A DNA stretch of 63,639 bases, the filler included, from Atractiella rhizophila (lineage: Eukaryota): the NCBI GenBank assembly GCA_021432655.1. It is 14 parts of 14 records of this genome, joined end to end, with 100 filler letters (N's around TTAATTAATTAA, not from the genome) between each part and the next. Parts side by side here need not be neighbours in the genome. Positions count along the whole stretch, not along the records: positions 9,211 to 13,708 come from MU272454.1; positions 13,809 to 18,304 come from MU272455.1; 12 more parts are not named here. The stretch is one strand, 5' to 3'. This document shows, in pieces, positions 6,427 through 20,988 of this stretch. Position 1 is the first letter of the stretch, and every line of letters starts with the position of its first letter. The notes under the pieces are model-generated. The model was given only the letters and a program-made list of their open reading frames with translations, did not search any database and was not told the DNA's origin. The position numbers were made by a program, and so were the translations under genes.

Positions 6427-8324
6427 TTATTCTCTCCTCCTTTCGCGCTCTTCTTCGCTGTCAGATATAACGATAGCTGGAACGTTAGGTGTTGGTCCCC
6501 CCAACCAATGGGGAAGCGTAACAATGCCGTTGAAGGCGAAAGTTCTACCCGGCAGATATATTAAATGGACCTGTTCGCTAAGACGGAGCAACGACGCACC
6601 CATAAACTAAAAGAGCAAATCCGACAACCTGTAACCAGCGGAAGGTTTCCCATCCTAACCCAAGGGAGACAACCCAGATGCCAAGTGTGCGGCAAGTGTC
6701 AATCGTGCTTCGCGCAGTGGCAGAGACCGAACGCGTCACTCCCAAACCCTTCAACGAGAGGTTGAGTATCGTACTTAGAAGAGACAGAAGAGTACATACG
6801 AAGAAGTTGAAAAACGCAATGCTGATGGCGATCGCAATACTGCTTCCCCAAACAGTTGGGTTCTACGTTGTCAAAAGTGAGCGAAGTATTTGACTAGNNN
6901 NNNNNNNNNNNNNNNNNNNNNNNNNNNNNNNNNNNNNNNNNNNNNNNNNNNNNNNNNNNNNNNNNNNNNNNNNNNNNNNNNNNNNNNNNNNNNNNNNNNN
7001 NNNNNNNNNNNNNNNNNNNNNNNNNNNNNNNNNNNNNNNNNNNNNNNNNNNNNNNNNNNNNNNNNNNNNNNNNNNNNNNNNNNNNNNNNNNNNNNNNNNN
7101 NNNNNNNNNNNNNNNNNNNNNNNNNNNNNNNNNNNNNNNNNNNNNNNNNNNNNNNNNNNNNNNNNNNNNNNNNNNNNNNNNNNNNNNNNNNNNNNNNNNN
7201 NNNNNNNNNNNNNNNNNNNNNNNNNNNNNNNNNNNNNNNNNNNNNNNNNNNNNNNNNNNNNNNNNNNNNNNNNNNNNNNNNNNNNNNNNNNNNNNNNNNN
7301 NNNNNNNNNNNNNNNNNNNNNNNNNNNNNNNNNNNNNNNNNNNNNNNNNNNNNNNNNNNNNNNNNNNNNNNNNNNNNNNNNNNNNNNNNNNNNNNNNNNN
7401 NNNNNNNNNNNNNNNNNNNNNNNNNNNNNNNNNNNNNNNNNNNNNNNNNNNNNNNNNNNNNNNNNNNNNNNNNNNNNNNNNNNNNNNNNNNNNNNNNNNN
7501 NNNNNNNNNNNNNNNNNNNNNNNNNNNNNNNNNNNNNNNNNNNNNNNNNNNNNNNNNNNNNNNNNNNNNNNNNNNNNNNNNNNNNNNNNNNNNNNNNNNN
7601 NNNNNNNNNNNNNNNNNNNNNNNNNNNNNNNNNNNNNNNNNNNNNNNNNNNNNNNNNNNNNNNNNNNNNNNNNNNNNNNNNNNNNNNNNNNNNNNNNNNN
7701 NNCGACAGCGTGCCCTTCTAATATGATCTCTGGATCGTCTAATCCAACAGGAAGCGGTAGTGGGGCAGCACCAATCTCGCCGTGCGGGACGTGCGATGCG
7801 TTGTCCCTCTTGACGTGAGCACGGGAGGTGAGGACGTCTTCGTCATCGTCCCGAATAGCAACAGCTGAATCGTGTGGCACAGATGTGGATACTGGCTGAT
7901 AGCCTTGTTTGGTTGGAGAGGATGAACGCCATTTGCGGAGTTGGGAAAGTAGGAGGAAGACTATGAGACCTATACGTTGCTCTTTCAGCGTGGTGCTCCT
8001 GATATGAAGGAAAATGTCTACAGAAGGTCTCCCCGATGAACATCACAAGCGTTTGCCAGACTGGCTGTGAATATTCTTTATGTTTCGACACATCCTCATC
8101 CTGGCAATTCTCCACGCATTGCATGTCCTTCCCGCGTCACTTCGCTTCAACCCACTATACCCCTTAACACCATGAAGAAGAACAGACCTGATACTTGGTC
8201 CATAAGCTATTAGAGACACCAGTAACCTATCCAGTTTTGGCGTCTCAGTGCACCCCCCTGTCAGGAGCAAAACACGTACCAACATCCCCGTAACCAGAAC
8301 TGGTATAATCGATTGAGCCGCCAT
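6427..8324 (-). CDS. SLC35F6-like drug/metabolite (nucleotide-sugar-type) transporter; middle lost in an 805-N gap
   Basis: N-terminus MAAQSIIPVLVTGML...MQCVENC...QPVWQTLVMFIGE. C-terminal exons SIAFFNFF|GLGVTRSVSATARSTIDTCRTLGIWVVSLGLGWETFRWLQVVGFALLVYG|TFAFNGIV...EEERERRRE*. Confidence 0.85.
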
Positions 8325-8524
8325 GTTGCCAATCAAACTCGTTGGGATTATAAATACCTGTGATTCTTGCTCTCGGATTCGCTTCTTGGTGGGTTGTGGG
8401 AACTGTGAAGTGGGGTCTTCCTTGCTTGGTTAAACATCCGACCGGGTCGGAATGATGCCGTTGATCTGGACTGTTTCCTCCAGCTGTCAGTTTGGTTTTG
8501 TCTTCAGAGAGACATATATGCCAG

Positions 8525-9110
8525 ATGACTGTCAGTCTACCATGGGACCTTGTCCCTACAATTGTGTATTGCATGGACCACAGTTGGAAAGATCTAGCGG
8601 CATGCGCACGAGTTTCACGAGCGTGGTTGCTGCCCAGTAGGCGGATGTTATACTCCTGGGTTCGATGTACAAGTTGGAGTGGAGAGAAGAACAGGCTGGT
8701 GAAGGTGTGCCGAAATGAAATAAACTGTCACTACTTATGTGAAAAGGACAGGTGCTCGCTACCCTGGATGTACACCCCGAATATTGTGAAATCATTCAGA
8801 AGCTCGAGATTAGGACCTGGCCCCTCGAACTCCCTTTAGACGAAAGGACGGAGCTTCACTCAAAGCTGATACACGCACTTCAAAGGTGTCAAAACCTTTC
8901 AGAGCTAATATTCACGAGAAATGGAGCCTTGTCAGATGAGCACGGCTTTCCTGTAGTGTTATCACAATTACAAACTCGACACTGCTTAGCGTTCTAGCGG
9001 CCATCTGCACTTTACCCAGTCTCAAATCTCTCGAAATCAACGGATCTACCTCAGCTCCAGGTGGATGGGAGGCAGAAGGACTTCTTCCGTTGCCGCGTCT
9101 CGACTCCTTC
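8525..9110 (+). CDS. F-box/LRR (RNI-like) protein, 3' truncated
   Basis: MTVSLPWDLVPTIVYCM...DLAACARVSRAWLLPSRRMLY is a fungal F-box pattern, followed by LRR-like LQRCQNLSELIF and LPSLKSLEIN. Confidence 0.8.
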
Positions 9111-9536
9111 NNNNNNNNNNNNNNNNNNNNNNNNNNNNNNNNNNNNNNNNNNNNTTAATTAATTAANNNNNNNNNNNNNNNNNNNNNNNNNNNNNNNNNN
9201 NNNNNNNNNNGAAAGAACGCAACGAATGATTTTCTCTTCATTGCCCTTATTTCGCGAACTTGAAGAAAGACTCACTACTTCTCTTCCCTAAACAGCCTCA
9301 TCACTATCAAGGCTCTGCTCCACTCAAGGTGATTAACAACAATCCCCAAACGACCCTGTCGAAGCAGGTTGAAACAAATTGAAAAAGAGAAAAAAGTTCA
9401 TGCTGAGGGGTAGAACCTTGGGGGTGACCCGGCTATGAATTCCGGTGTTTCCGCTGTTATCATCATATCTTCCTCTTCTCGTCACCAGAATTTTGACGAC
9501 GATTTGCTGTCTCCCAATAGTTGCTCTCCAAAAACG

Positions 9537-10348
9537 ATGTCTCAACCTGCACGCCTCTCTCCCTTTGGTAATGCACTCGCGGGAGCGATTGGCGGTTGCC
9601 TCTCCAACGCTGTTGTGTGAGTTCCTGTGTAGAAACGCCGGACAGTTCACTGACGCTGGAGCAGATATCCACTTGATACGTATGTCTTTTCTTCTCCATG
9701 TATTCCCTTCTGGATTGAGGAAAACGTAGCGTGAAAACTCGCATTCAAGCTGACACTTCAGCTGACGAGAAATCAACACCTTCCGGCTCCTCACTTTCGA
9801 GACCAGCCGCACCGAAGCATATCGACCTGTCCTCCGTCACGGCTTCGAAAAAGGATGGAGTGCGGAAGACTTTCATGAAAATTTGGAAGGAGCAGGGGAT
9901 TGAAGCGTTCTATCGTGGATTTGGAGCTTCAATGCTCAACACCTTCAGTATGCAATTGTACGTCACCTCCTCTTTCTGCAGTCCAGGGCAATGAGGTTTG
10001 AGACTCTTACGCTACTATTTCTGTGTAGTGCATACTTTTATTTTTATGCACTCGTTCGTGCGACATATTTGAAGCGCCTTGCGACTGGTTCCCTCTCATC
10101 GGGCAAAAAACAGTCACCACAAGCATTATCTACAGCGTACGCCTTTCCTTTCTATTCGGGGTTGAGCAGAATCTGAGAGGTGTATCACAGGACCGAGCTC
10201 ATCCTCGGAGCCATAGCTGGCGTCCTCTCTTCTATATTCACCATTCCAGTCTCGGTCATTGCGACCCGTCAACAACTCTCAAACAGCAAAAATGCGCCAT
10301 CATTTATCCAAACTGCGAGCGTGATCCTCCAGGAGGACGGAATTACCG
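9537..10348 (+). CDS. ANT1: Peroxisomal adenine nucleotide transporter (mitochondrial carrier family, Ant1/PMP34-like), 3' truncated at a gap
   Basis: LSPFGNALAGAIGGCLSNAVV|YPLDT|VKTRIQA carries the PxDxxKxR signature. Also EQGIEAFYRGFGASMLNTFSMQ, AYFYFYALVRATY and ELILGAIAG..FTIPVSVIATRQQ. Confidence 0.85.
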
Positions 10349-10390
10349 GTTAGCCTCTACCCATTNNNNNNNNNNNNNNNNNNNNNNNNN

Positions 10391-11452
10391 GAGGTACTCC
10401 AACCACTGAGGCGGGTGACAAAGCGTCCGAGGATGGGAAGGCCGAGCTTTTTGGCGACGGAACGGCGGGCGAGGAGGACGGCTGCTGCTCCATCTGACAC
10501 CTGCAATCCATACCCTCTCAGCATGCTGCAGGTAATGAAGGAATAGAGAAGTGCGAACCTGCGAAGCGTTACCGGCATGGGTAGAACCATCCTTCTTGAA
10601 AGCAGGCTTGAGCTTGCCCCAAGCTCTCGGCGGTAACACCGTCCCTGAATCCATCGTCCTTATCCACCGTCTTCTCATTCCCATTCTCATCCTTCACCAC
10701 GACGGGTACGATTTCATCCCTAAACTTGCCCTCCTTCTGTGCCTTGAAAGCCTTCTGGTAAGAAGACGCGGCAAACTCGTCCTGCTTCGCACGCGACACT
10801 TTGTATTCGGTCGCGACGTTCTCGGATGTGATACCCATGGGGACGAGACAGTCTGCTGCCTCTTGGTTCGACATGACCTCGTCACTGAAACGCTCAGGGA
10901 AGACGCCGGGTCCGTAGTGAATGGTCATGCCTCTCAACACCAGCACCGATACCAATATCGATCTCACCTGTGTACAATGTTCGTCAGCACTTTGACAAGG
11001 GTTTGACGGAGAGTGACGAACCAGTCTGAATCTCCAATGCGATCTGGTTGATGGAGGTAAGACCAGAAGAGCATTGACGGTTCACGGTATTCACGGCCGC
11101 GGTATGCGGGATTCCAGCAGCAAGAGCAGCCATACGCGCAATGTTGGCTCCTCCACCAGGGCAAAGGACAGTCCCGACAGCTACATCCTCAATGTATTTG
11201 GGGTCGATTCCTTCAGGTCAAAACGGTGATAAGTCCCAACTTTGCCCAGATAATAACCCAAGTAAAAAGCATACCAGACTGCTTGATGACTCCCTTGAAG
11301 ACTGTCAAGAGCAAATCATCAGGAACGACGTCCTTCAGTCCACCTTTCTTCGCTTTCGTAATCGGTGTCCTGAGTGCGGAAACAACGACGACGTCGTCTG
11401 GCGTTTGCCTCAAGATGGAGCTCTTTCCGCCGCGAGTGTTTGGTGCTGCCAT
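10391..11452 (-). CDS. POT1: 3-ketoacyl-CoA thiolase (peroxisomal Pot1 type), 3' truncated at a gap; three apparent +1 homopolymer frameshifts
   Basis: DDVVVVSALRTPITKAKKGG, NRQCSSGL (catalytic Cys), IGIGAGVE, PMGITSENVA, LKPAFKKDGSTHAGNASQ|VSDGAAAVLL. Confidence 0.92.
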
Positions 11453-11688
11453 TGCGATCGTAGAAGTGATCTTTTCTGTTTGTGATTGGATGGAAAAAGC
11501 TGGAGAACTGGGGAAATGCTCTGAGGCAACAGGTGTTTTATGCGACGTGTTGATTGCCGAGTTTCACGTGCTGCCCCGGGGGATGATGTGAGCGTGAAGC
11601 CGGAAACCTCAACCGGAACTTACCGCGGAATGTCTTTGCACATCAAAAACGATGGAGTATTTAGGTTGGGATATACACAATATGTACT

Positions 11689-11761
11689 GCCTTGGTAGCT
11701 CAGTCGGTAGAGCATGAGACTTTTAATCTCAGGGTCGTGGGTTCGAGCCCCACCTAGGGCG
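11689..11761 (+). tRNA. tRNA-Lys, anticodon TTT, no intron
   Basis: Acceptor stem GCCTTGG/CTAGGGC, D arm GCTC..GAGC, anticodon arm TGAGA-CTTTTAA-TCTCA, T arm GTGGG-TTCGAGC-CCCAC, then a T-run Pol III terminator. Confidence 0.97.
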
Positions 11762-12011
11762 CTTTTTGTTGGCTTAATTTTTTTTACTTTTGCCGGGAAG
11801 TAGTACCCGATAATAGCGAGCTCACCGAAGCTCCATGGCACCCAGCTCTTCTTCATTTCGGCCTATCTGTTCATTGCACACTTGCAGCACCTCTGCAGTC
11901 TGAAGCGTCCCCCGTAAGCCGCGGAACCCGTCTTATAATAACCCTCACCCGCGTTATTGGACATTACCCACCCGTCTTCGAATCAAACCACTAGATTTTT
12001 AGTCCCACGTC

Positions 12012-12724
12012 ATGAGTACCCAAGCAACTATCAACGCCCTAGGAGCAGATAATATCCGTCAATGGCTTGAAGGGTTCTGGGCTGCAGGTGGATACGGGTC
12101 AGAGGTCATGCAGAAGCTTCAACTGGTTTCATGCGAGTTGGAAGGCTTTGAAGTGGTGCAAGAGGATGGAGAGGACGTGTTGAAAAGCGGACGGGGAGCG
12201 AAGAGCACCGTTGTCTTCAAATTGCTGGTTGACGAGTCTATGTGTAGTCCTACCGGTAAGTTTCTTGCTTTCAACTCTCAAGAAGCTTCCTAACGTGAAG
12301 GCGGGCATCTTTCGCCAGGTTTCATACATGGTGGTTGCACAGTGAGAAATTGCCGGTCATGATGTGGTAGATTACTTATTCTCGTCCTAGGCATACCTTT
12401 TAGATGTCTGCACCTCGTTAGCGATACGGCCGTTCTCCAAACCTGGCTTTTGGTTCACGACGGGAATGAGCACTTCCCTCATCACCACCTTTCTAAACGC
12501 TGTCCCTTGCAATACTACCGTTTTGTATGCTACCTTCCTCAGCTCGAAGCCTTGACTAATTTGTTGTTCCACACAGACTTGTCAACCGTACATTATCACA
12601 AGGGAAGGCAGTAGCGTCCTATGACTTCGAAATGATCAGTGAGGATGGGAAGACTATTTACGCGAAGGGCACTCATACAAAGGCTGACACTAATAAGGTC
12701 AATACAGCAGTTAGTAAACTGTAG
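12012..12724 (+). CDS. Hotdog-fold acyl-CoA thioesterase (PaaI/ACOT13-like) with a C-terminal PTS1 (SKL)
   Basis: Four exons: MCSPT|GFIHGGCT|AYLLDVCTSLA...GMSTSLITTFLNA|...AKGTHTKADTNKVNTAVSKL*. The HGG..D motif is present; stop TAG at 12722-12724. Confidence 0.88.
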
Positions 12725-12793
12725 ATTTGAATCTTAGATTGCATGCTCTATTCACTTCGTCCTCATGCTCTATTTACAACATTACTCGGGACC

Positions 12794-13671
12794 TCAGCTT
12801 TGCTTTGACAGGAAGTCGATCATCTTCTCCAGTGCCCTTGCTCGATGAGAGATAGCGTTCTTTTCTTCTGAGGCCATTTCCGCATACCTATAACAGCATT
12901 AGTTCACATTGTAGCTTGTGACATGGAGCTCCTCACGTCTTCCCAGTTTCCTCAGCTTCAAATACAGGATCCCAACCAAAGTTCTGAAACAAGAATTAAC
13001 TCTTTTCACAAAAAAGGATGGCATCACGAACAGGGGGACCACGAGGTGGAACGATCTTTCCATCTGTGCTGCCTTGAAACATTTGTGGCTTCGAGACGGT
13101 ACCATCGACAATTTCACAATAACCGAACGTGCAAACTGCTTTTGCACCTTTGCCGTCAAATCCGGCAAGCATACTGTTGAGACCTACGAACGATTGAACA
13201 CTCAACTACTTCGAATCAGATCAAGATATGAAAGCACACCGTTCAGACCCAACGATTTGAGAAACCATTTGATGTATGGCCCAGGAAGCTCTCCCATGGC
13301 GTTGAAACATAGCGCTGTATCTTCAGTTACGACTGCGACCTTTCCGACAGTAGCTTCTTTCCTTGTCTCCTGCAACAGAGCTTCAGCAGCTCGCTCAACT
13401 TTTGCGAGAGCGATGGAGGCGATTGTTCCCTGTAATTCAGGGACTATTTGACGTTTATACCTCTGTAGAATTGCAAACGACGTACGGTCGAGATCCAACG
13501 AGGTTATCTCCAGCCTAGATGTGAGACTGGACGGGAGACGTGAAGACATCACTTCGCGGAACTGAAAAGACATATTAGAGTAGTTCCTTGGCTTGGATGG
13601 GACTGAAGAGCACCTCGCGTAACTTATTAGCGTTTCCGGTAACAAAGACTTAATTCTTTCATCAGAGACAT
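12794..13671 (-). CDS. HAM1: Inosine triphosphate pyrophosphatase (Ham1/ITPA)
   Basis: [61 protein letters not shown]. One extra A near 13650 breaks the frame after MSLMKEL. Confidence 0.93.
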
Positions 13672-13992
13672 TCACTCCATCATAAGAATACTTGCCTAAT
13701 TTTGACGGNNNNNNNNNNNNNNNNNNNNNNNNNNNNNNNNNNNNNNNNNNNNTTAATTAATTAANNNNNNNNNNNNNNNNNNNNNNNNNNNNNNNNNNNN
13801 NNNNNNNNGCAAGGGTAGGGCAAAACCTTAATTTCCGCCTTCTATGCGTTAAAGTTTGGAGGGACAGAGGGACAGTCAGAGGGACATTTAGCGCCAAAAA
13901 TTTTTGAAAAATTTTTATATCCGTGAGTTCCGGTAAACTCCACCCATCTGTGAAAGGTTGAAAAGTGCGCCGTACTCCTGAGCCATATCACC

Positions 13993-16900
13993 TCAGCTGC
14001 CTGAATGCATTTTATGTCACTGCTCAAATCAAAGTAGGAATGGGAGCAAACATACCATTGAGTTTGGCAGCTTTCTTTGCCCAAGCCTTAACCACATCAT
14101 CACCCTTCTTCACCTCTAACAGCAGCTGGTCCAGTTTCGGCCCTCTAATCAAGGCAATTTTCTTCTTTCTATCAATCTCCACCTCATCATCATCTTCCCT
14201 CAATTCCCAATCATGCTCTTCCTCTCCTCCTCGCATATACTGAGCAGCTTCACCTCTGTGAGCCTGGTGAAAATGATATTGGAATCCATAAGACCAGAAT
14301 GTATCTGAACAGTTAGAACCGAAACAGGGCAAGGGGTGGTTTGAGCATGGGTTGGAAGTTGTAGATTTTCGAAGTGTCACAATGCTGATCTTTTTAAGAA
14401 TCTGTCGGAAGACACTACAGTTGCTCTCGAACTCGACAGGATCACGGTTTTTGGCCCGCGCTTTTGCAAAGGCTCTACTGATACAAGTCCCTGTTTGCCG
14501 ACACATTGGGCAAGTAAATTGTACGGCCTACATGTTGCAAGTTCAGTGAATAGAGCAAGGGATGGAATGCAATGATTAAACTTACAGTGATCCGGGATCC
14601 ACTGTCTTGCCAAAGTTCCGGTGGAAATGGAGGGAGGGCAAGATGAGGATATGCTCCTATTGGAGAGTAGGGAGCTCCGGTGCGTCTGGACACATCTTGA
14701 AGATGTTGATTTGCAAGCCAGAGAGCGATATGATAGCTGATGTGTGGAATGAGCTTGTTGGAACTGATGATGATGGGGCAACCGGTAATGGGGCATGCGA
14801 TGTGGTTGGCCTTTATCTCTCCCGTTCCCTGAAGAGCAGTTTGAATCGGAGCAGACAGGAATGAAGATTGTCCTATATCTTGAGGAGTCAGTAGTGTGAT
14901 TTGGTATTGCAGAACTTGAAACACGTACCATTTTCATCAATATAGGGGAAATTTTCAACGGATGAAGTAATTGAAAGGATCCCCTTTGATTTGAGGCACG
15001 CAGAAATATCTGAGGGTGACAAGGTCCCATCATTTCCATCAAGGTAAAGACCTGTTAAGCTAGCTTCGAGTTGTATGAGGTCGGCCATGGAAAAAATGTA
15101 TGAGTTGGGGAATGGTGCAAGAATTCCGTGGACGGGGAGGAGATATCGACTCGAGATTGACAGCATGCCATTGTCTCTAGTCGTATTCGGAATGTTCAAG
15201 AAGTGAGAGATATTCCAGGTCCACAATGGATTGCCGAGTGGGGGAATGATCGAGGGACGTGACAATCGAATAGGGCGAAAGCGAAGGAACAGATTTTCTT
15301 GATCGGTTCCAAGTTTGGAAATGGAAAAATGTTTGACTTGCTTGGTATTCCTTCGTGGGTCAATATCTTTATACTGCCCAAGCAAAAGAGCGACATGTGG
15401 CCCAACATGACAGAGTGTTGCAAGAAAACTATCCGGCTGAAGGATATCGTCAAGAGGGATATCTAATGATGGAACTATACCAACCCTTGGATCAAGGATG
15501 GTCCAGTTACTTCGCGCATTGGAACGGTTGGCTTTTGGGTTGATAGTTTGCTTCATGTTCCGTCGTATTCTATCTCCAGATCCCGTTTCGATGTCGCGAT
15601 TGAAGGCTAATCGAGTGAGGTGTTGCTTGTGGACTGGCCCTCCTTCTGTTTCGGTCCGACTCTTCACAAAAAACTCCATTCGGTTCCTCATTAACTCCCA
15701 AATCACCTTCCTCTCCCCTCCGTTCTCCGCCTCCACTTCCATCTCCGTTCTAGCAAGCTGTACATCATCGCCGTGAAGGGCAGCAGCTGCTAAGAGAGCT
15801 AACCGATCATCAGACGAGCCACTGGCAAGCAATTCCAGACTACTATCTTGTTCAGCAGCGTGCTGAATTGCCGTCAAAACCTCTTCCAGAAGCTGGCTGT
15901 CAAAAGATTGTTGTGGTGGATAGAGTGCCGCAACTGCAGGAGAATTTTTTGGTGTCGGAATGTAGCCTGACGGTTTGGTGCGTTGATTTGATGGCAAGGT
16001 TTCGTCATCGAAAGCATCGGCGGGGGCTCCCTTGCTGAGACTGAGGGAGAGGAAGGAGCCTTGATTCGGGGTGTAGTTCTCGATAGCAAAGACAATGGAA
16101 GGATCCTGAAGCCTTCTAACTAAAGCAGCGCCTGCCTCCAACCCACTATTCCATAACTCCTCAATCCTCCCCTCCACCAAAGAAGCCTGAACATTCCCCA
16201 AAATATCTGAAGGGTTTGAATGGTCTACCCCTTCTTTGAGACAGATATTTCGACGTGACCTTCCTGGTTTACATTGACTATATTTCCCGTTGAGAAGATC
16301 GTCAATCTCCATTGCAGCAACAGCACCTTGCGCAGCCTGAAGCAAGTCGAACACCTTCTGATTTCCCTTCAGGCAGCGGATGATAGAGAAGAGACCTTCC
16401 AGACGGTCCGATCCCAAGAATCCTAAAAACACCTCGCCCGTAGGATCCACTTGAAGTTGGCGAAGCGTGGAGACCCAAGCGGCAGATATGGTTGTTTGCA
16501 GGTCATGGAAGAGCTGCCAGGGGCAGAAGTGACCACCTTCCTGTTTGTAGCAAGCGTAGAGAATGACTGCAGCGGTAGTGAGCTGACTGAGCTGATCCGC
16601 AAGGTTGTTCTCAGGATTGACAAAGGAGAGGAGAATCAGGTCGAGAAAGTTTGCAAGGAGTTGATAGGCTCGGTATTGGACAAGTCCCGTCAGGTCATCG
16701 GAAGGGGGTTCGGGAAGGTCTCGAAGCTCGATGAAATAATTAATGAGCCTTGTCGTCGTTGGTACATTCTGCGCATCTGCCTCCCAGAAAAGGTGGTTCC
16801 ACTCGTCTTCTGATACAGTCGGATGCCGCTTTCTGAGATATTCGAGATGAGTAGATGGGGTAAGAAGAGCTTGTCCGAATTTGATGCCAGCAGCTCTAGT

Positions 16901-18304
16901 CAACCAGGTTTTGATTCGTTTCCAAATATGTTTGGGATCAAAACACTGGACAACTCCGCACTCTGAACAGCCGTAGTGGAACCAACGAAGACCCTCAGGT
17001 AAGAATGCACACAATTCAGGGATGGCAGTGAGAAGGCGGGACTCGTTGTAAATTTTCGATCCATTCTTCCGTCGTCCAGCATCACCGTCACTGTTCGAGG
17101 TAACATGGACGCTGTTTGGGCGATTCTCACGTAGCCATTCGCCAAATACGCGGTCATGTAAGCGCATATCTCGTTCGATCATCTCATCTGACATTCCACT
17201 GCCACAACAGCCTGATATCGACATTATTCTGCAACCATAGTCTGTCAACACCATCAGCATAATTTGGACACATAATCAATCACTGACCACTACGAGTGTT
17301 CTTGTTATAAACCACAAATGACGCCTTTGAGCATCGGTGCCACTTCCCGTCAATAAACTCCTGCACCAGGTTATCGAGGTCCTCCTCCGTTTCAAATATC
17401 TTCTCCACATCATCACCATGTTCCTTACAAACCCCGAGCCAACAGTTTGAGTGAAAGTCCCACTGGACCTTTCCCTCACATGCGGTCTCGTCCTGAGAGG
17501 TCGAGTAGCACGCGGGAGAGGAGGAACTCTGCAGCTGATGAAAAGGTGGACCCTTGCTTTGAGGAGGAGAGGTCTGACGATGAGGACTGTGCGTCATCTC
17601 CGGAAGTTGAGAGGGTTCGAACGGGAGGCTTGACGGCAAATTCGGCGAGGTCGAAGTGACATCACTTTCCGAGTCTGATGATTCACCCCCACTATCCGAC
17701 CCATCTCCATCACAACTCGTAGGCTGAATAGTTGCGTCCAAACCCTCTTCCAATGTCCCACCGAAGGTGCTGAGGTTGTGCAACAACTCCTCCTCCATTA
17801 CAACACCTGGCGAGACTCGAACCTTTAGCTGACTCGCAAATCGTCGAACCGAGCGGAGGGAAGGAAGATTAGTTGCCTTGTGGAAGATATTGACGAGTTG
17901 ATTTCCTCCTATTCGAAGGAGGAAAAGGCTGAGCTCGTAATCTCGTACATTGTACGAGCGTATCCCCTGCTCGCCAGCTGCAACCGCATGGATCTTCTTG
18001 ATCACTTTCTTTGTTCCCATCTTCTCCTTCAGACAAGTATTGATAAGCTGAGGTATTCGAGCAACATCAATGAGCGCCACCGCTTCCAGCAGCTCCTTGA
18101 ACAACGCGATTCGTTTGTTCATCTTTTCGATCTTCCTATCTCTCGCAACAATCTGTCATGATCACTAATTAGCGCCGAACTTGAAGTGGAAAATAAACAT
18201 ACCTGATTGCTCAGACCCCTGCGATGAGAAGCTAACTGAGACAGATGAGCTTGCATGTGCTGGTAAGACTTGTGGCCAAGAGAGGTCTTGAGGGACAGGG
18301 AACC
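13993..18304 (-). mobile_element. Large (>1,300 aa, 5' truncated) P-element/THAP9-like DDE transposase with a C-terminal Cys/His zinc-binding region
   Basis: Stop-free spliced reading frame (introns 18202-18153, 17287-17242 and three more downstream). Motifs in order: LPSLRSVRRF, STSQDET, SNSDGD, FDPKHIWKRIK, DAQNVP, LGSDRLEGLFSIIR. These are followed by CPITGC..HISYH, CPMC..C and PCSNHPLPC..C..HFHQAH. Confidence 0.7.
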
Positions 18305-19341: not shown

Positions 19342-20988
19342 CTATTGCGGCACACACTGCGAGTAATAGGGGTCTGCAGTTGTTTTCATCAAAGGAATGC
19401 TGGAGCAAATGAGAAGAGAAAGCGCACTTGAGTAAGCGCAACGATAGCCATTCGAACAAGCGGTCGCACCAGTCCAACCCTGTCCTCCGCACTGACCATA
19501 CGCGGTTTGCGTCGCTGCGGATGAGGGCGAAGGATTGTCGTCTCCCGGTACACATTGCGAGTAATAGGGATCTGCATTCGTCTATCAGAAGAATCCCTTC
19601 TCGGATATTGATTGCTAACTGGAGTAGACGCAATGATAACCGGCTGTGCAACCAGTCGCGCCAGCCCAACCTTGTCCTCCGCATTGACCGTACGCCGATT
19701 GTGTTCCTGTGGAGGATGGCGCAGAGCTGGGACTGCTTGGAGAGGAGGAGGAAGAGGAGCTGTCACCGCCAGGTACGCATTGCGAATAGTAGTCATCTAG
19801 GTTCGGCCATCAGCTTGAGGGATATTGAAGAGCTTAGATACAGACTAGAGTATACGCAGTTGTAACCGCTAGCACAAGCAGTTGCTCCAGTCCATCCTTG
19901 TCCACCGCATTGTCCATAAGCTACCTGTGTCGTGGTAGATGAAGGAGCAGAGGAAGTGGAACCGCTCGTGGGGCTGGAAGAACTGCTCGTGGATTTAGAC
20001 GATGAAGCAGAATTGCTTTGAGATGACCGCGACGACAATCCTGAGGCAGTCGAACCACCGTTGGAAGTGATGCTTCCCCCACCAGAGCAAGCGCAATTCT
20101 GGCATTGAGGAGCTTGCCCGCCTTCACCGTAATGTTGATTGTACTGACTCAGCTGTGCTGACCGTCAATGCTTTTCATTGGAGGAGAATCTGAAATGGTC
20201 AGACCTGGACCCAAGTAACACAATAGCTTCCGCCATAAGCTTGAGAAGCACCGGAGAAGTCATAGCAGTTCTTGCCAATGTATTGGCCAGATGGTTGATT
20301 GTTCTGAGACTCGAAGTGAGTGCCAAAGCTTTGAGGTGTCCATCCAGAATTTGAAGTGTACGACTGCCCGCATTGGTACTGGGAGCATGATATGGCCTGC
20401 AACGGTGTTAATTGTCGTCATTCTGGACAAGTGGCATCTATACCTGATAGTTGACGTGACCTCCGTCCGAATAGCCTCCGTTAGGAAGCGTGACACCCAT
20501 CACGCCGTTAGGGCATTCTTGATCGACAGTATAGGGCGTGCAGCCATCCGAACCTCCCTAATATCGTTCAGTGAGACGTCAATAATTCAAAGAGTACGCA
20601 CGCCACCGGTTTTGCACGGCTGGGTGGTGCTAGTTGTTTGGGTAGGCGTCGACGTTGTCGGCGGCGTCGTTGTTGCTGAAGGTTGCTGCCTCCTAATCTT
20701 TTTGAGGACGGTTCGATTATGGGAAACTTGGTTCCTCTTCACTCGATCTTTCATCATTCCATCAGCATTTCTTTTGTAACAAGGAATTTACGAACCATGT
20801 TGCACAGGAGCATTTCGACTGGTTCTTCCAACAAAACCCAACCATGGAACGGCGGATTGATCATCAAAAGGGGCCAGGGGATTTTTTAAGAATGAAAATT
20901 GATCCAAGGCTTCCTCGTTGGCGTATGAGCCGATAGAAGACGCTTGGGCTAAGTGAGCGACGAGGATAAAACCGTTGATGAGAATCAT
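19342..20988 (-). CDS. Secreted protein: signal peptide, Thr/Pro linker, unassigned Cys-rich module, Ser-rich linker and three CBM1 cellulose-binding modules
   Basis: Hydrophobic N-terminus MILINGFILVAHLAQA. Three copies of YGQCGGQGW(T/A)GAT.C..GY.C.YSN.YYSQCVP. Stop TAG at 19344-19342. Confidence 0.88.

Follow-up and report, generated by a model that had tools for sequence, protein, structure and literature searches.

A contig of Atractiella rhizophila very probably holding the 3' part of a divergent P-superfamily DNA transposon

The DNA analysed here (the window) is a stretch of 63,639 nt from Atractiella rhizophila that consists of 14 separate contigs of 4,369-4,507 bp each, ordered by falling length and joined by 13 linkers of the form N44-TTAATTAATTAA-N44. 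This report concerns positions 13809-18304, which are exactly one whole contig (contig 4; 4,496 bp) and carry a large intron-containing gene on the minus strand. Because the contigs are joined by linkers, the sequences flanking this region in the window are not its genomic context. On the evidence given below, the contig very probably represents the 3' ~4.5 kb of a ~6-6.6 kb autonomous cut-and-paste DNA transposon of the P superfamily. The element is a divergent architectural variant of this known superfamily and not a new kind of system.

In a stop-to-stop listing, four long open reading frames (ORFs; 291, 795, 152 and 167 aa) were found on the minus strand in 14024-18155, together with a short open stretch up to the end of the contig. 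Joining these through four GT..AG introns (50, 46, 56 and 58 nt), with a 102-nt partial first exon, yields 4,068 nt, i.e. 1,356 stop-free codons on the minus strand. This agrees with an original prediction, made from the sequence before this analysis, of about 4 kb of spliced, stop-free coding sequence for more than 1,300 aa, and the single 795-codon open frame is far beyond chance. No run recorded as RNA contains the contig's stretch, and the four introns are predicted ones. The parts of the gene, in the order of transcription, are as follows.

18203..18304, minus strand: partial upstream exon, 102 nt, open to the contig end
18153..18202, minus strand: intron 1, 50 nt, GTATGT..CAG
17288..18152, minus strand: exon 2, with the end of the coiled coil, the helix-turn-helix region with LPSLRSVRR, an acidic/Ser-rich low-complexity stretch and the first RNase-H strands
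17242..17287, minus strand: intron 2, 46 nt, GTCAGT..CAG; the NCBI model places the donor 3 nt upstream
14929..17241, minus strand: exon 3, with the second RNase-H half, the insertion domain, a conserved region past the core, a linker of poor model quality and a beta-rich domain
14873..14928, minus strand: intron 3, 56 nt, GTACGT..TAG, with a TACTGAC branch-like site
14586..14872, minus strand: exon 4, with Cys/His module 1
14528..14585, minus strand: intron 4, 58 nt, GTAAGT..TAG; the family profile spans the junction
14027..14527, minus strand: exon 5, with Cys/His modules 2 and 3, then an acidic/basic tail; the stop codon is at 14024-14026

The reading frame is open to base 18304, and the 38 residues that precede the first Met match the coiled-coil part of the profile of the protein family described below. 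The contig end therefore truncates the gene, whose N-terminal part is off the contig; two Logan contigs from the same organism extend 500 and 2,101 nt upstream past 18304. The gene had been described as apparently intact and intron-containing: it has four predicted introns, but intactness goes beyond the visible sequence, since the frame is still open where the contig breaks off. What the window contains is the 3' two-thirds of the element, with a gene that is undamaged over the visible part.

The model deposited at NCBI for this gene (P0001) is a partial 'hypothetical protein' of 521 aa. It also splices out an in-frame, 174-nt GT..AG stretch (17700-17527) that is Ser/Asp/Pro-rich and of low complexity. 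This stretch may be either an intron or coding sequence.

All the motifs named in the original prediction are present on the minus strand and in the order given there: LPSLRSVRR (17867-17841), QDE (within 17498-17481), SDGD (within 17098-17078), FDPKHIWKRI (from 16942), DAQNV (16783-16760), GSDRLEGLFSIIR (16414-16376) and the Cys/His groups (14798-14730, 14512-14483 and 14353-14258). P0001 covers all of the core motifs, and an AlphaFold (AF2) model of it, built with an alignment of 99 relatives, has a mean predicted local distance difference test score (pLDDT) of 92.4 and a predicted template modelling score of 0.86. The topology of this model is that of a split RNase H: D153 lies on beta1, D271 just after beta4 (residues 264-270) and E501 on helix 498-509, while strand 317-320 is followed by the D-P-K-H helix, and an almost entirely helical insert occupies approximately residues 339-497. 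As modelled, the protein therefore has an RNase-H-like core with a D, D, E triad, the positions of which are given below (numbering of the spliced protein, with that of P0001 in brackets).

17490..17492, minus strand: predicted first catalytic Asp, D255 (D153), in Q-D-E; at least 90% conserved, on strand 147-156
17087..17089, minus strand: predicted second catalytic Asp, D374 (D271), in S-D-G-D; invariant, right after strand 264-270
16397..16399, minus strand: predicted catalytic Glu, E604 (E501), in D-R-L-E; invariant, on helix 498-509
16409..16885, minus strand: insertion domain, wholly helical, that separates beta5 from the helix with the catalytic Glu, at the position of the GTP-binding domain of P transposase; contains an invariant D-x-Q-N-V-P

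The Asp three residues before the catalytic Glu is also at least 90% conserved in the family; its counterpart in P transposase, matched here by position only, is D528, a contact of guanosine triphosphate (GTP) according to the available part of PMC7776569.

Structure comparison placed this fold with P transposase, as the original prediction had proposed. In a Foldseek search of the PDB with the P0001 model, the best match was P transposase (6p5a_A; E 4.5e-11, template modelling scores of 0.53/0.60 over ~500 columns), and the next class, RAG1, followed at ~1e-5. VIA-align superimposed the model on P transposase with Z 24.6 and a root-mean-square deviation of 4.9 over 369 residues (model residues 55-521 to P residues 155-551), far ahead of Transib (Z 12.2), RAG1 (10.8) and Hermes (7.3). 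A second model, of exon 3 alone (770 aa, pLDDT 73.7), was compared with 48,161 representative chains without Foldseek, and P transposase was the sole match with Z of at least 8 (16.1; next 5.8). The model thus has an RNase-H core that contains the very Asp, Asp and Glu named beforehand, and P transposase, rather than a member of another superfamily, is its best match. Its overall fold, as modelled, is nearest to that of P transposase, with a helix-turn-helix, a split RNase H and a helical insertion between beta5 and alpha4.

Sequence profiles led to the same protein. With profile A1 (99 relatives), seven chains among the PDB sequences were listed at E<=10, and P transposase came first (E 0.0024), the LPS..T region of the family being aligned to P residues 104-200 and D-x-K-H-x-x-K-R to D-T-P-H-L-I-K of P. 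Profile A2 had P transposase as its sole match among the PDB sequences (E 0.036), and its alignment paired the first acidic column of the family with the Asp of F-D-E-M in P, which is D230 by counting along the alignment. D230 is the first catalytic residue of P transposase (PMC7776569, available part).

The protein belongs to a large family. An exhaustive HMMER search with the 795-aa exon as query detected 717 representative clusters at E<=1e-3, 362 of them at E<=1e-10, and the relatives are up to ~1,700 aa long; in a word-based homologue search, the sole match was the deposited model of the gene itself. The alignment of the spliced protein to the family profile extends over positions 54-1117 of 1175, all three Cys/His modules included. 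Twenty relatives were looked up: 17 have an organism name, all 17 are from basidiomycetes and are annotated as 'hypothetical protein' at NCBI, and the other three come from Logan/JGI. The sampled members include, from Pucciniomycotina, Atractiella paralogues and Rhodosporidiobolus and, from Agaricomycotina, Tulasnella, Rhizoctonia, Pleurotus, Marasmius, Stygiomarasmius, Sphaerobolus, Sistotremastrum, Amylocystis, Plicaturopsis, Tephrocybe, Mycena and Phanerochaete. The Atractiella paralogues are only ~30-35% identical to the copy in the window. In one relative (P0026; 1,364 aa), the transposase is preceded by a match to Peptidase_S9_N (residues 12-111, E 4.5e-12), which is probably due to a gene-model fusion with a neighbouring gene.

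Evidence for mobility comes from relatives in metagenomes. Metagenome contigs were scanned with a degenerate DNA pattern for G-T-D-R-L-E-x-L-F-G-x-x-R, which matched 97 stretches against a few expected by chance (a hand estimate), and of the 96 loci compared by tblastn (E<=1e-5), 89 code for relatives of the spliced protein; a metagenome search with a single protein gave 54 pattern matches, none of them confirmed. An all-versus-all blastn comparison revealed discrete ~6-kb blocks that share 96-99.9% identity and lie in unrelated flanks, e.g. L059:6837-12849 and L079 (98.1%), L001 and L059 (99.9% from a common left boundary) and L021 and L075 (96.5%). The ends of the blocks are inverted repeats that start CAAGGGGG[C/T], the terminal inverted repeats (TIRs) being 14-20 nt long. 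When at least 11 of the 14 terminal bases were required to match, the 30 loci that reach 5 kb yielded 16 candidate end pairs, five of which (L008, L059, L064, L073 and L074; 5,954-6,087 bp) are bounded by perfect 8-bp duplications of the target site (TSDs). In Mycena floridula, one cluster at 90% identity unites three proteins (1,695-1,698 aa) that are encoded on three different contigs. The TIRs, the 8-bp TSDs and the presence of copies in different flanks indicate that the family is mobile. The original prediction had proposed a search for 7-8-bp duplications; these were found in the relatives (five perfect 8-bp duplications and one 7/8 among the 16 pairs), whereas the copy in the window shows one end only.

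Two further metagenome loci have unusual arrangements: L026 (3,128 bp) contains two motif matches on opposite strands, and L016 (6,812 bp) aligns with two parts of L022, one in each orientation. Nested or head-to-head copies may underlie these arrangements.

The visible end of the element in the window has the following features.

13810..13827, no strand assigned: element terminus downstream of the gene, beginning CAAGGG on the plus strand, the same hexamer as at the ends of the TSD-bounded relatives
13859..13886, plus strand: a 28-bp stretch with three copies of GAGGGACA, 50-77 bp inward of the terminus

The plus strand of the contig starts with G, followed by CAAGGGTAGGG, and this terminus is unique in the window. 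It lies 214 bp past the stop codon, on the side that corresponds to the downstream end of the relatives. CAAGG occurs within 5 nt of the end at one of the 28 contig ends, and the frequency of the hexamer is 2.4e-4 per position. The end of the assembly contig and those of two Logan contigs (one of which starts exactly at 13810) fall within 1 nt of the terminus, and one Logan contig runs 33 nt further. The GAGGGACA copies (seven in the whole window against 2.3 expected) may be subterminal transposase-binding repeats, to judge from their number and position. Inverted repeats inside the contig amount to short, chance-level pairs, none of them terminal.

The Logan word depth of the element-bearing contigs was ~725 in run X1 and ~514-536 in run X2, and that of contigs touching over 20-36 nt ~130 and ~87, respectively, values that are no measure of copy number. 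The assembly and the Logan contigs differ at six single bases (15226, 15228, 16156, 16179, 17129 and 17277), and run X1 contains a minor-variant bubble at 16679-16738 (depth 35.8 versus 615). The differences between assembly and Logan contigs are compatible with slightly different copies or haplotypes. Small near-identical pieces (151-245 nt, 0-1 mismatches, depth 2-3) were also present in two rhizosphere metagenome runs (X3 and X4) and in run X5; the last, a run of another organism that is guessed to be RNA, contains the element in two contigs (151 and 245 nt, depth 2), and no intron is crossed by either.

The most distinctive part of the protein is its C-terminal extension. It has 752 residues after the catalytic Glu, compared with 220 in P transposase (751 aa, E531; figures from the available part of PMC7776569), and thus ~530 extra residues. 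The original prediction had recognized this extension and put it at 650-750 extra residues; the extension is real, and its size relative to P is smaller. The C-terminal part of the family profile is covered by 50 of the 150 relatives listed, and the alignment of the extension across relatives makes it a feature of the family. In the second model, a well-predicted region after the core (e.g. G-x-D-H-x-N-P) is followed by ~200 poorly predicted residues and then by a beta-rich domain of ~170 residues; the zinc region, encoded in exons 4 and 5, is C-terminal to that domain.

14930..15442, minus strand: beta-rich domain, approximately residues 923-1093 of the spliced protein, pLDDT mostly 70-90, no clear known fold

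Two identities considered for this domain were set aside, namely a BAH, chromo, Tudor or PWWP barrel (VIA Z only 4.0-4.4) and a chymotrypsin-like protease (Foldseek E only 0.25-1.2), and the ESM Atlas contained no usable match to it.

The Cys/His region at the C-terminus, already noted in the original prediction, proved to be nearly invariant in full-length relatives: in an alignment of 50 of these, the Cys/His positions of all three modules are at least 90% conserved. Module 1 (14798-14730) has the form C-x4-C-x12-H-x3-H, a C2H2-type spacing. Module 2 (14512-14483) is a C-G-F-C-G-type cluster in the family and reads C-P-M-C...C...C here, with a further Cys near 14420. Module 3 (14353-14258) has the family form P-C-T-N-V-P-x-C-x-x-C...W-K-Y-N...H-x4-H and, in the window copy, the form N-P-C-S-N-H-P-L-P-C...C...H...H. 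Among the 50 relatives, zf_C2HC_14 matched in three (best E 0.0054). In the ESM Atlas, 29 of the 30 matches to the zinc region are clusters that have no Pfam family in common, among which the three displayed are uncharacterised ones from basidiomycetes, and one lead (0.83) pointed to zf-Di19. Pfam matches of the last ORF piece to DUF3915 (E 0.057) and RXLR (E 0.27) were taken as noise.

In the relative L059, a further open piece (12269-12610, plus strand) lies past the zinc modules, inside the TSD-bounded element at 6838-12848, and has a PHD-like ending, C-x-C-G...K-C...C...W; it has no Pfam match at E<=1. Another relative (P0145) bears the automatic UniProt name 'Zinc finger PHD-type domain-containing protein'. 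With only 214 bp between stop codon and terminus, the window copy has no room for such a piece.

At the other end of the protein, the L059 gene begins ~320 bp inside the left end of its element, and ~400 residues with C-x2-C...H...C and H-x3-C...C-x2-C motifs precede the coiled coil. The motif H-[AS]-x2-C ... C-[QS]-x-C-x-E-L is found upstream of the coiled coil in L059 (7974-9272) and in the Atractiella paralogues P0003 and P0004. It is a candidate replacement for the THAP finger, and by analogy with these relatives the off-contig part of the gene in the window probably holds such an N-terminal Cys/His module.

These features can be compared with those of P transposase (Drosophila melanogaster, PDB 6P5A/6PE2) and its kin THAP9 and zebrafish Pdre. 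According to the available part of PMC7776569, P shares with the family a helix-turn-helix with LPS..T and a coiled coil upstream of it, an RNase-H Asp on beta1, a second Asp after beta4 and a Glu on the helix after an all-helical insertion between beta5 and alpha4, D-x-x-H-x-x-K-x-x-R after beta5 and D-x-L-E, as well as TIRs and 8-bp TSDs, which are present in the relatives; the 8-bp TSD is a hallmark of P elements (PMC7776569 and PMC3164196, available parts). The identity between P and the window protein in the structural alignment is only ~12-13%. The relatives have TIRs of ~14-20 nt starting CAAGGGGG, whereas those of P are 31 nt long. After the Glu, the family has ~750 residues with the beta-rich domain and three Cys/His modules, in contrast to the 220 residues and acidic C-terminal domain of P. 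P carries a THAP finger; none was detected in the relatives, which have other N-terminal Cys/His motifs.

P elements in fungi have been described before. Three from rust fungi with 8-bp TSDs, P-1_PSt, P-1_MLP and P-2_MLP, have been in Repbase since 2011 (PMC3164196, available part), so that the remark in the original prediction that such elements are seldom reported in fungi is fair and not absolute. The rust elements and the window element are alike, by description only, in their superfamily, in their occurrence in Pucciniomycotina (the subphylum of Atractiella) and in 8-bp TSDs; the present family also occurs in Agaricomycotina, beyond the Pucciniomycotina of the rusts. A Pfam-based survey summed up the fungal P entries of Repbase as 'Only Pucciniales & Allomyces', counted 11 transposase-bearing copies and suggested horizontal acquisition (PMC5751038, available part). 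Full-text literature searches returned no description of a basidiomycete-wide family or of its C-terminal modules, the sequences in Repbase being outside this comparison.

Taken together, the gene would encode, as a single intron-containing unit, a transposase of more than 1,356 aa, composed in order of a coiled coil, then a helix-turn-helix, an RNase-H core (D255, D374 and E604) split by an all-helical insertion and a family-specific extension of ~750 residues. By analogy with P, the enzyme would bind the inverted CAAGGG... ends, excise the element and integrate it at a cut with an 8-bp stagger. The zinc modules and the beta domain at the C-terminus would probably add recognition of DNA ends or of target/chromatin.

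Several results weigh against a P-superfamily transposon at this locus. The 5' end of the window copy, its second TIR and its TSD lie off the contig, and the other 13 contigs of the window contain no second copy (best tblastn E 4.6; nothing by blastn). The shared stop of the contigs at the terminus gives weak support for a repeat-boundary effect on the assembly graph, because the assembly may itself come from runs X1 and X2. The 11 end pairs without a perfect TSD match at 7 (L079), 6, 5, 2, 2, 2, 1, 1, 1, 1 and 0 of 8 positions. A phmmer search of the PDB sequences with the 795-aa exon had no match at E<=10. The Pfam P-element families, which the original prediction had suggested for comparison, were not matched at threshold: the P models (PF12017, PF21787, PF21788, PF21789 and PF12596) had no match on the four ORF pieces at E<=1, and no transposase model reached the threshold in the 50 relatives. 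THAP likewise was absent from the 50 relatives in Pfam (E<=1), the N-terminus of the gene in the window being off the contig. Below the threshold, TNP-like_RNaseH_N (PF21787) appeared in two of the 50 relatives (best E 0.0089, 16.8 bits versus a cut-off of 24.6) and in L059 (E 0.011), and TNP-like_RNaseH_C (PF21789) in two of the 50 (best E 0.018).

Among the alternatives, the one that survives best, and which we nevertheless consider unlikely, is that this is a true P-like copy which is itself inactive, or belongs to an inactive lineage, despite its open frame. The position of the 5' end off the contig and the fact that no run recorded as RNA contains the stretch would fit an immobile relic, as would the six differences between assembly and Logan contigs, which imply some divergence among copies or haplotypes. 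A stretch of 1,356 stop-free codons with four clean introns, however, argues for recent activity or selection, and the catalytic and family-invariant residues are all present.

Far less probable is that, as with THAP9 in vertebrates, a P-like transposase has been domesticated into an immobile host gene kept for a cellular function. A long open frame with no decay, a single copy visible in the window and paralogues in the same fungus that are only ~30-35% identical are what such a gene might show. Yet a CAAGGG terminus of the family type closes the contig 214 bp past the stop codon, the catalytic residues have been kept, and the relatives have TIRs, 8-bp TSDs and near-identical copies in differing flanks. 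The original prediction had left open an active or a domesticated lineage; the mobility of the relatives favours the transposon over the domesticated gene.

Kinship with other transposase classes bears on a third alternative. Transib and RAG1 also combine an RNase-H core with an insertion domain and form the second structural class, at about half the Z of P (12.2 and 10.8). Transib elements generate 5-bp TSDs, as opposed to the 8 bp of the relatives, which sets the family apart from Transib/RAG1-like elements. Hermes, of the hAT superfamily, also has an RNase-H insertion domain, and its Z of only 7.3 versus 24.6 for P is a weak match that could still reflect distant kinship; no hAT family was listed by Pfam among the 50 relatives. 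It is very improbable that the protein only looks like P and belongs to another RNase-H superfamily whose members have an insertion domain, be it hAT, Transib/RAG-like or a Cys-rich fungal group such as KDZ. In favour of this reading, 8-bp TSDs are also typical of hAT elements, the structural lists include Transib, RAG1 and Hermes at Z 7-12, and the Pfam P models stayed below threshold. Against it, P has approximately twice the Z of any other class over the helix-turn-helix, core and insertion domain and is the sole A2 and top A1 match among the PDB sequences, with collinear motifs, and the sub-threshold Pfam transposase families are all TNP-like, with no hAT, KDZ or Transib listed.

Beyond a P-superfamily transposon at this locus, we tentatively propose, as a reading that is plausible and somewhat more doubtful than not, that the family is a basidiomycete-wide, recently mobile branch of P that is invisible to domain libraries, in which the THAP finger has been replaced by other zinc modules and a ~530-residue extension, with a reader-like beta domain and three zinc modules, serves end recognition or the choice of chromatin targets. 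If so, P-type elements would be common, not rare, in Dikarya, and the picture of sporadic, horizontally acquired fungal P elements (PMC5751038, available part) would be an artefact of profile sensitivity. The 11 fungal copies of that Pfam-based survey, set against 717 clusters and 89 metagenome loci here, point to a substantial blind spot in fungal transposon annotation, and large transposase genes deposited as hypothetical proteins inflate gene counts. The question whether the GTP dependence and unusual end structure of P are ancestral could be addressed in this family as a second, highly divergent lineage, and the family's conserved C-terminal beta domain and zinc modules would be an addition to a well-studied type of enzyme. 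In kind, the element is not unexpected, rust-fungus P elements being already in Repbase.

The other contigs of the window provided a few minor observations. Contigs 2 and 3 contain N runs (805 N at 6898-7702 and 25 N at 10366-10390, respectively) that are scaffold gaps and not linkers, and the dip in GC content to 0.16 at 7001-8000 is due to the N run. In contig 5, ORFs at 19342-19796 (minus strand) carry a repeated Y-G-Q-C-G-G-Q-G-W-T-G-x-T-x-C motif with linkers ending ...P-Y-Y-S-Q-C-V-P, which we take to be the fungal cellulose-binding module CBM1.

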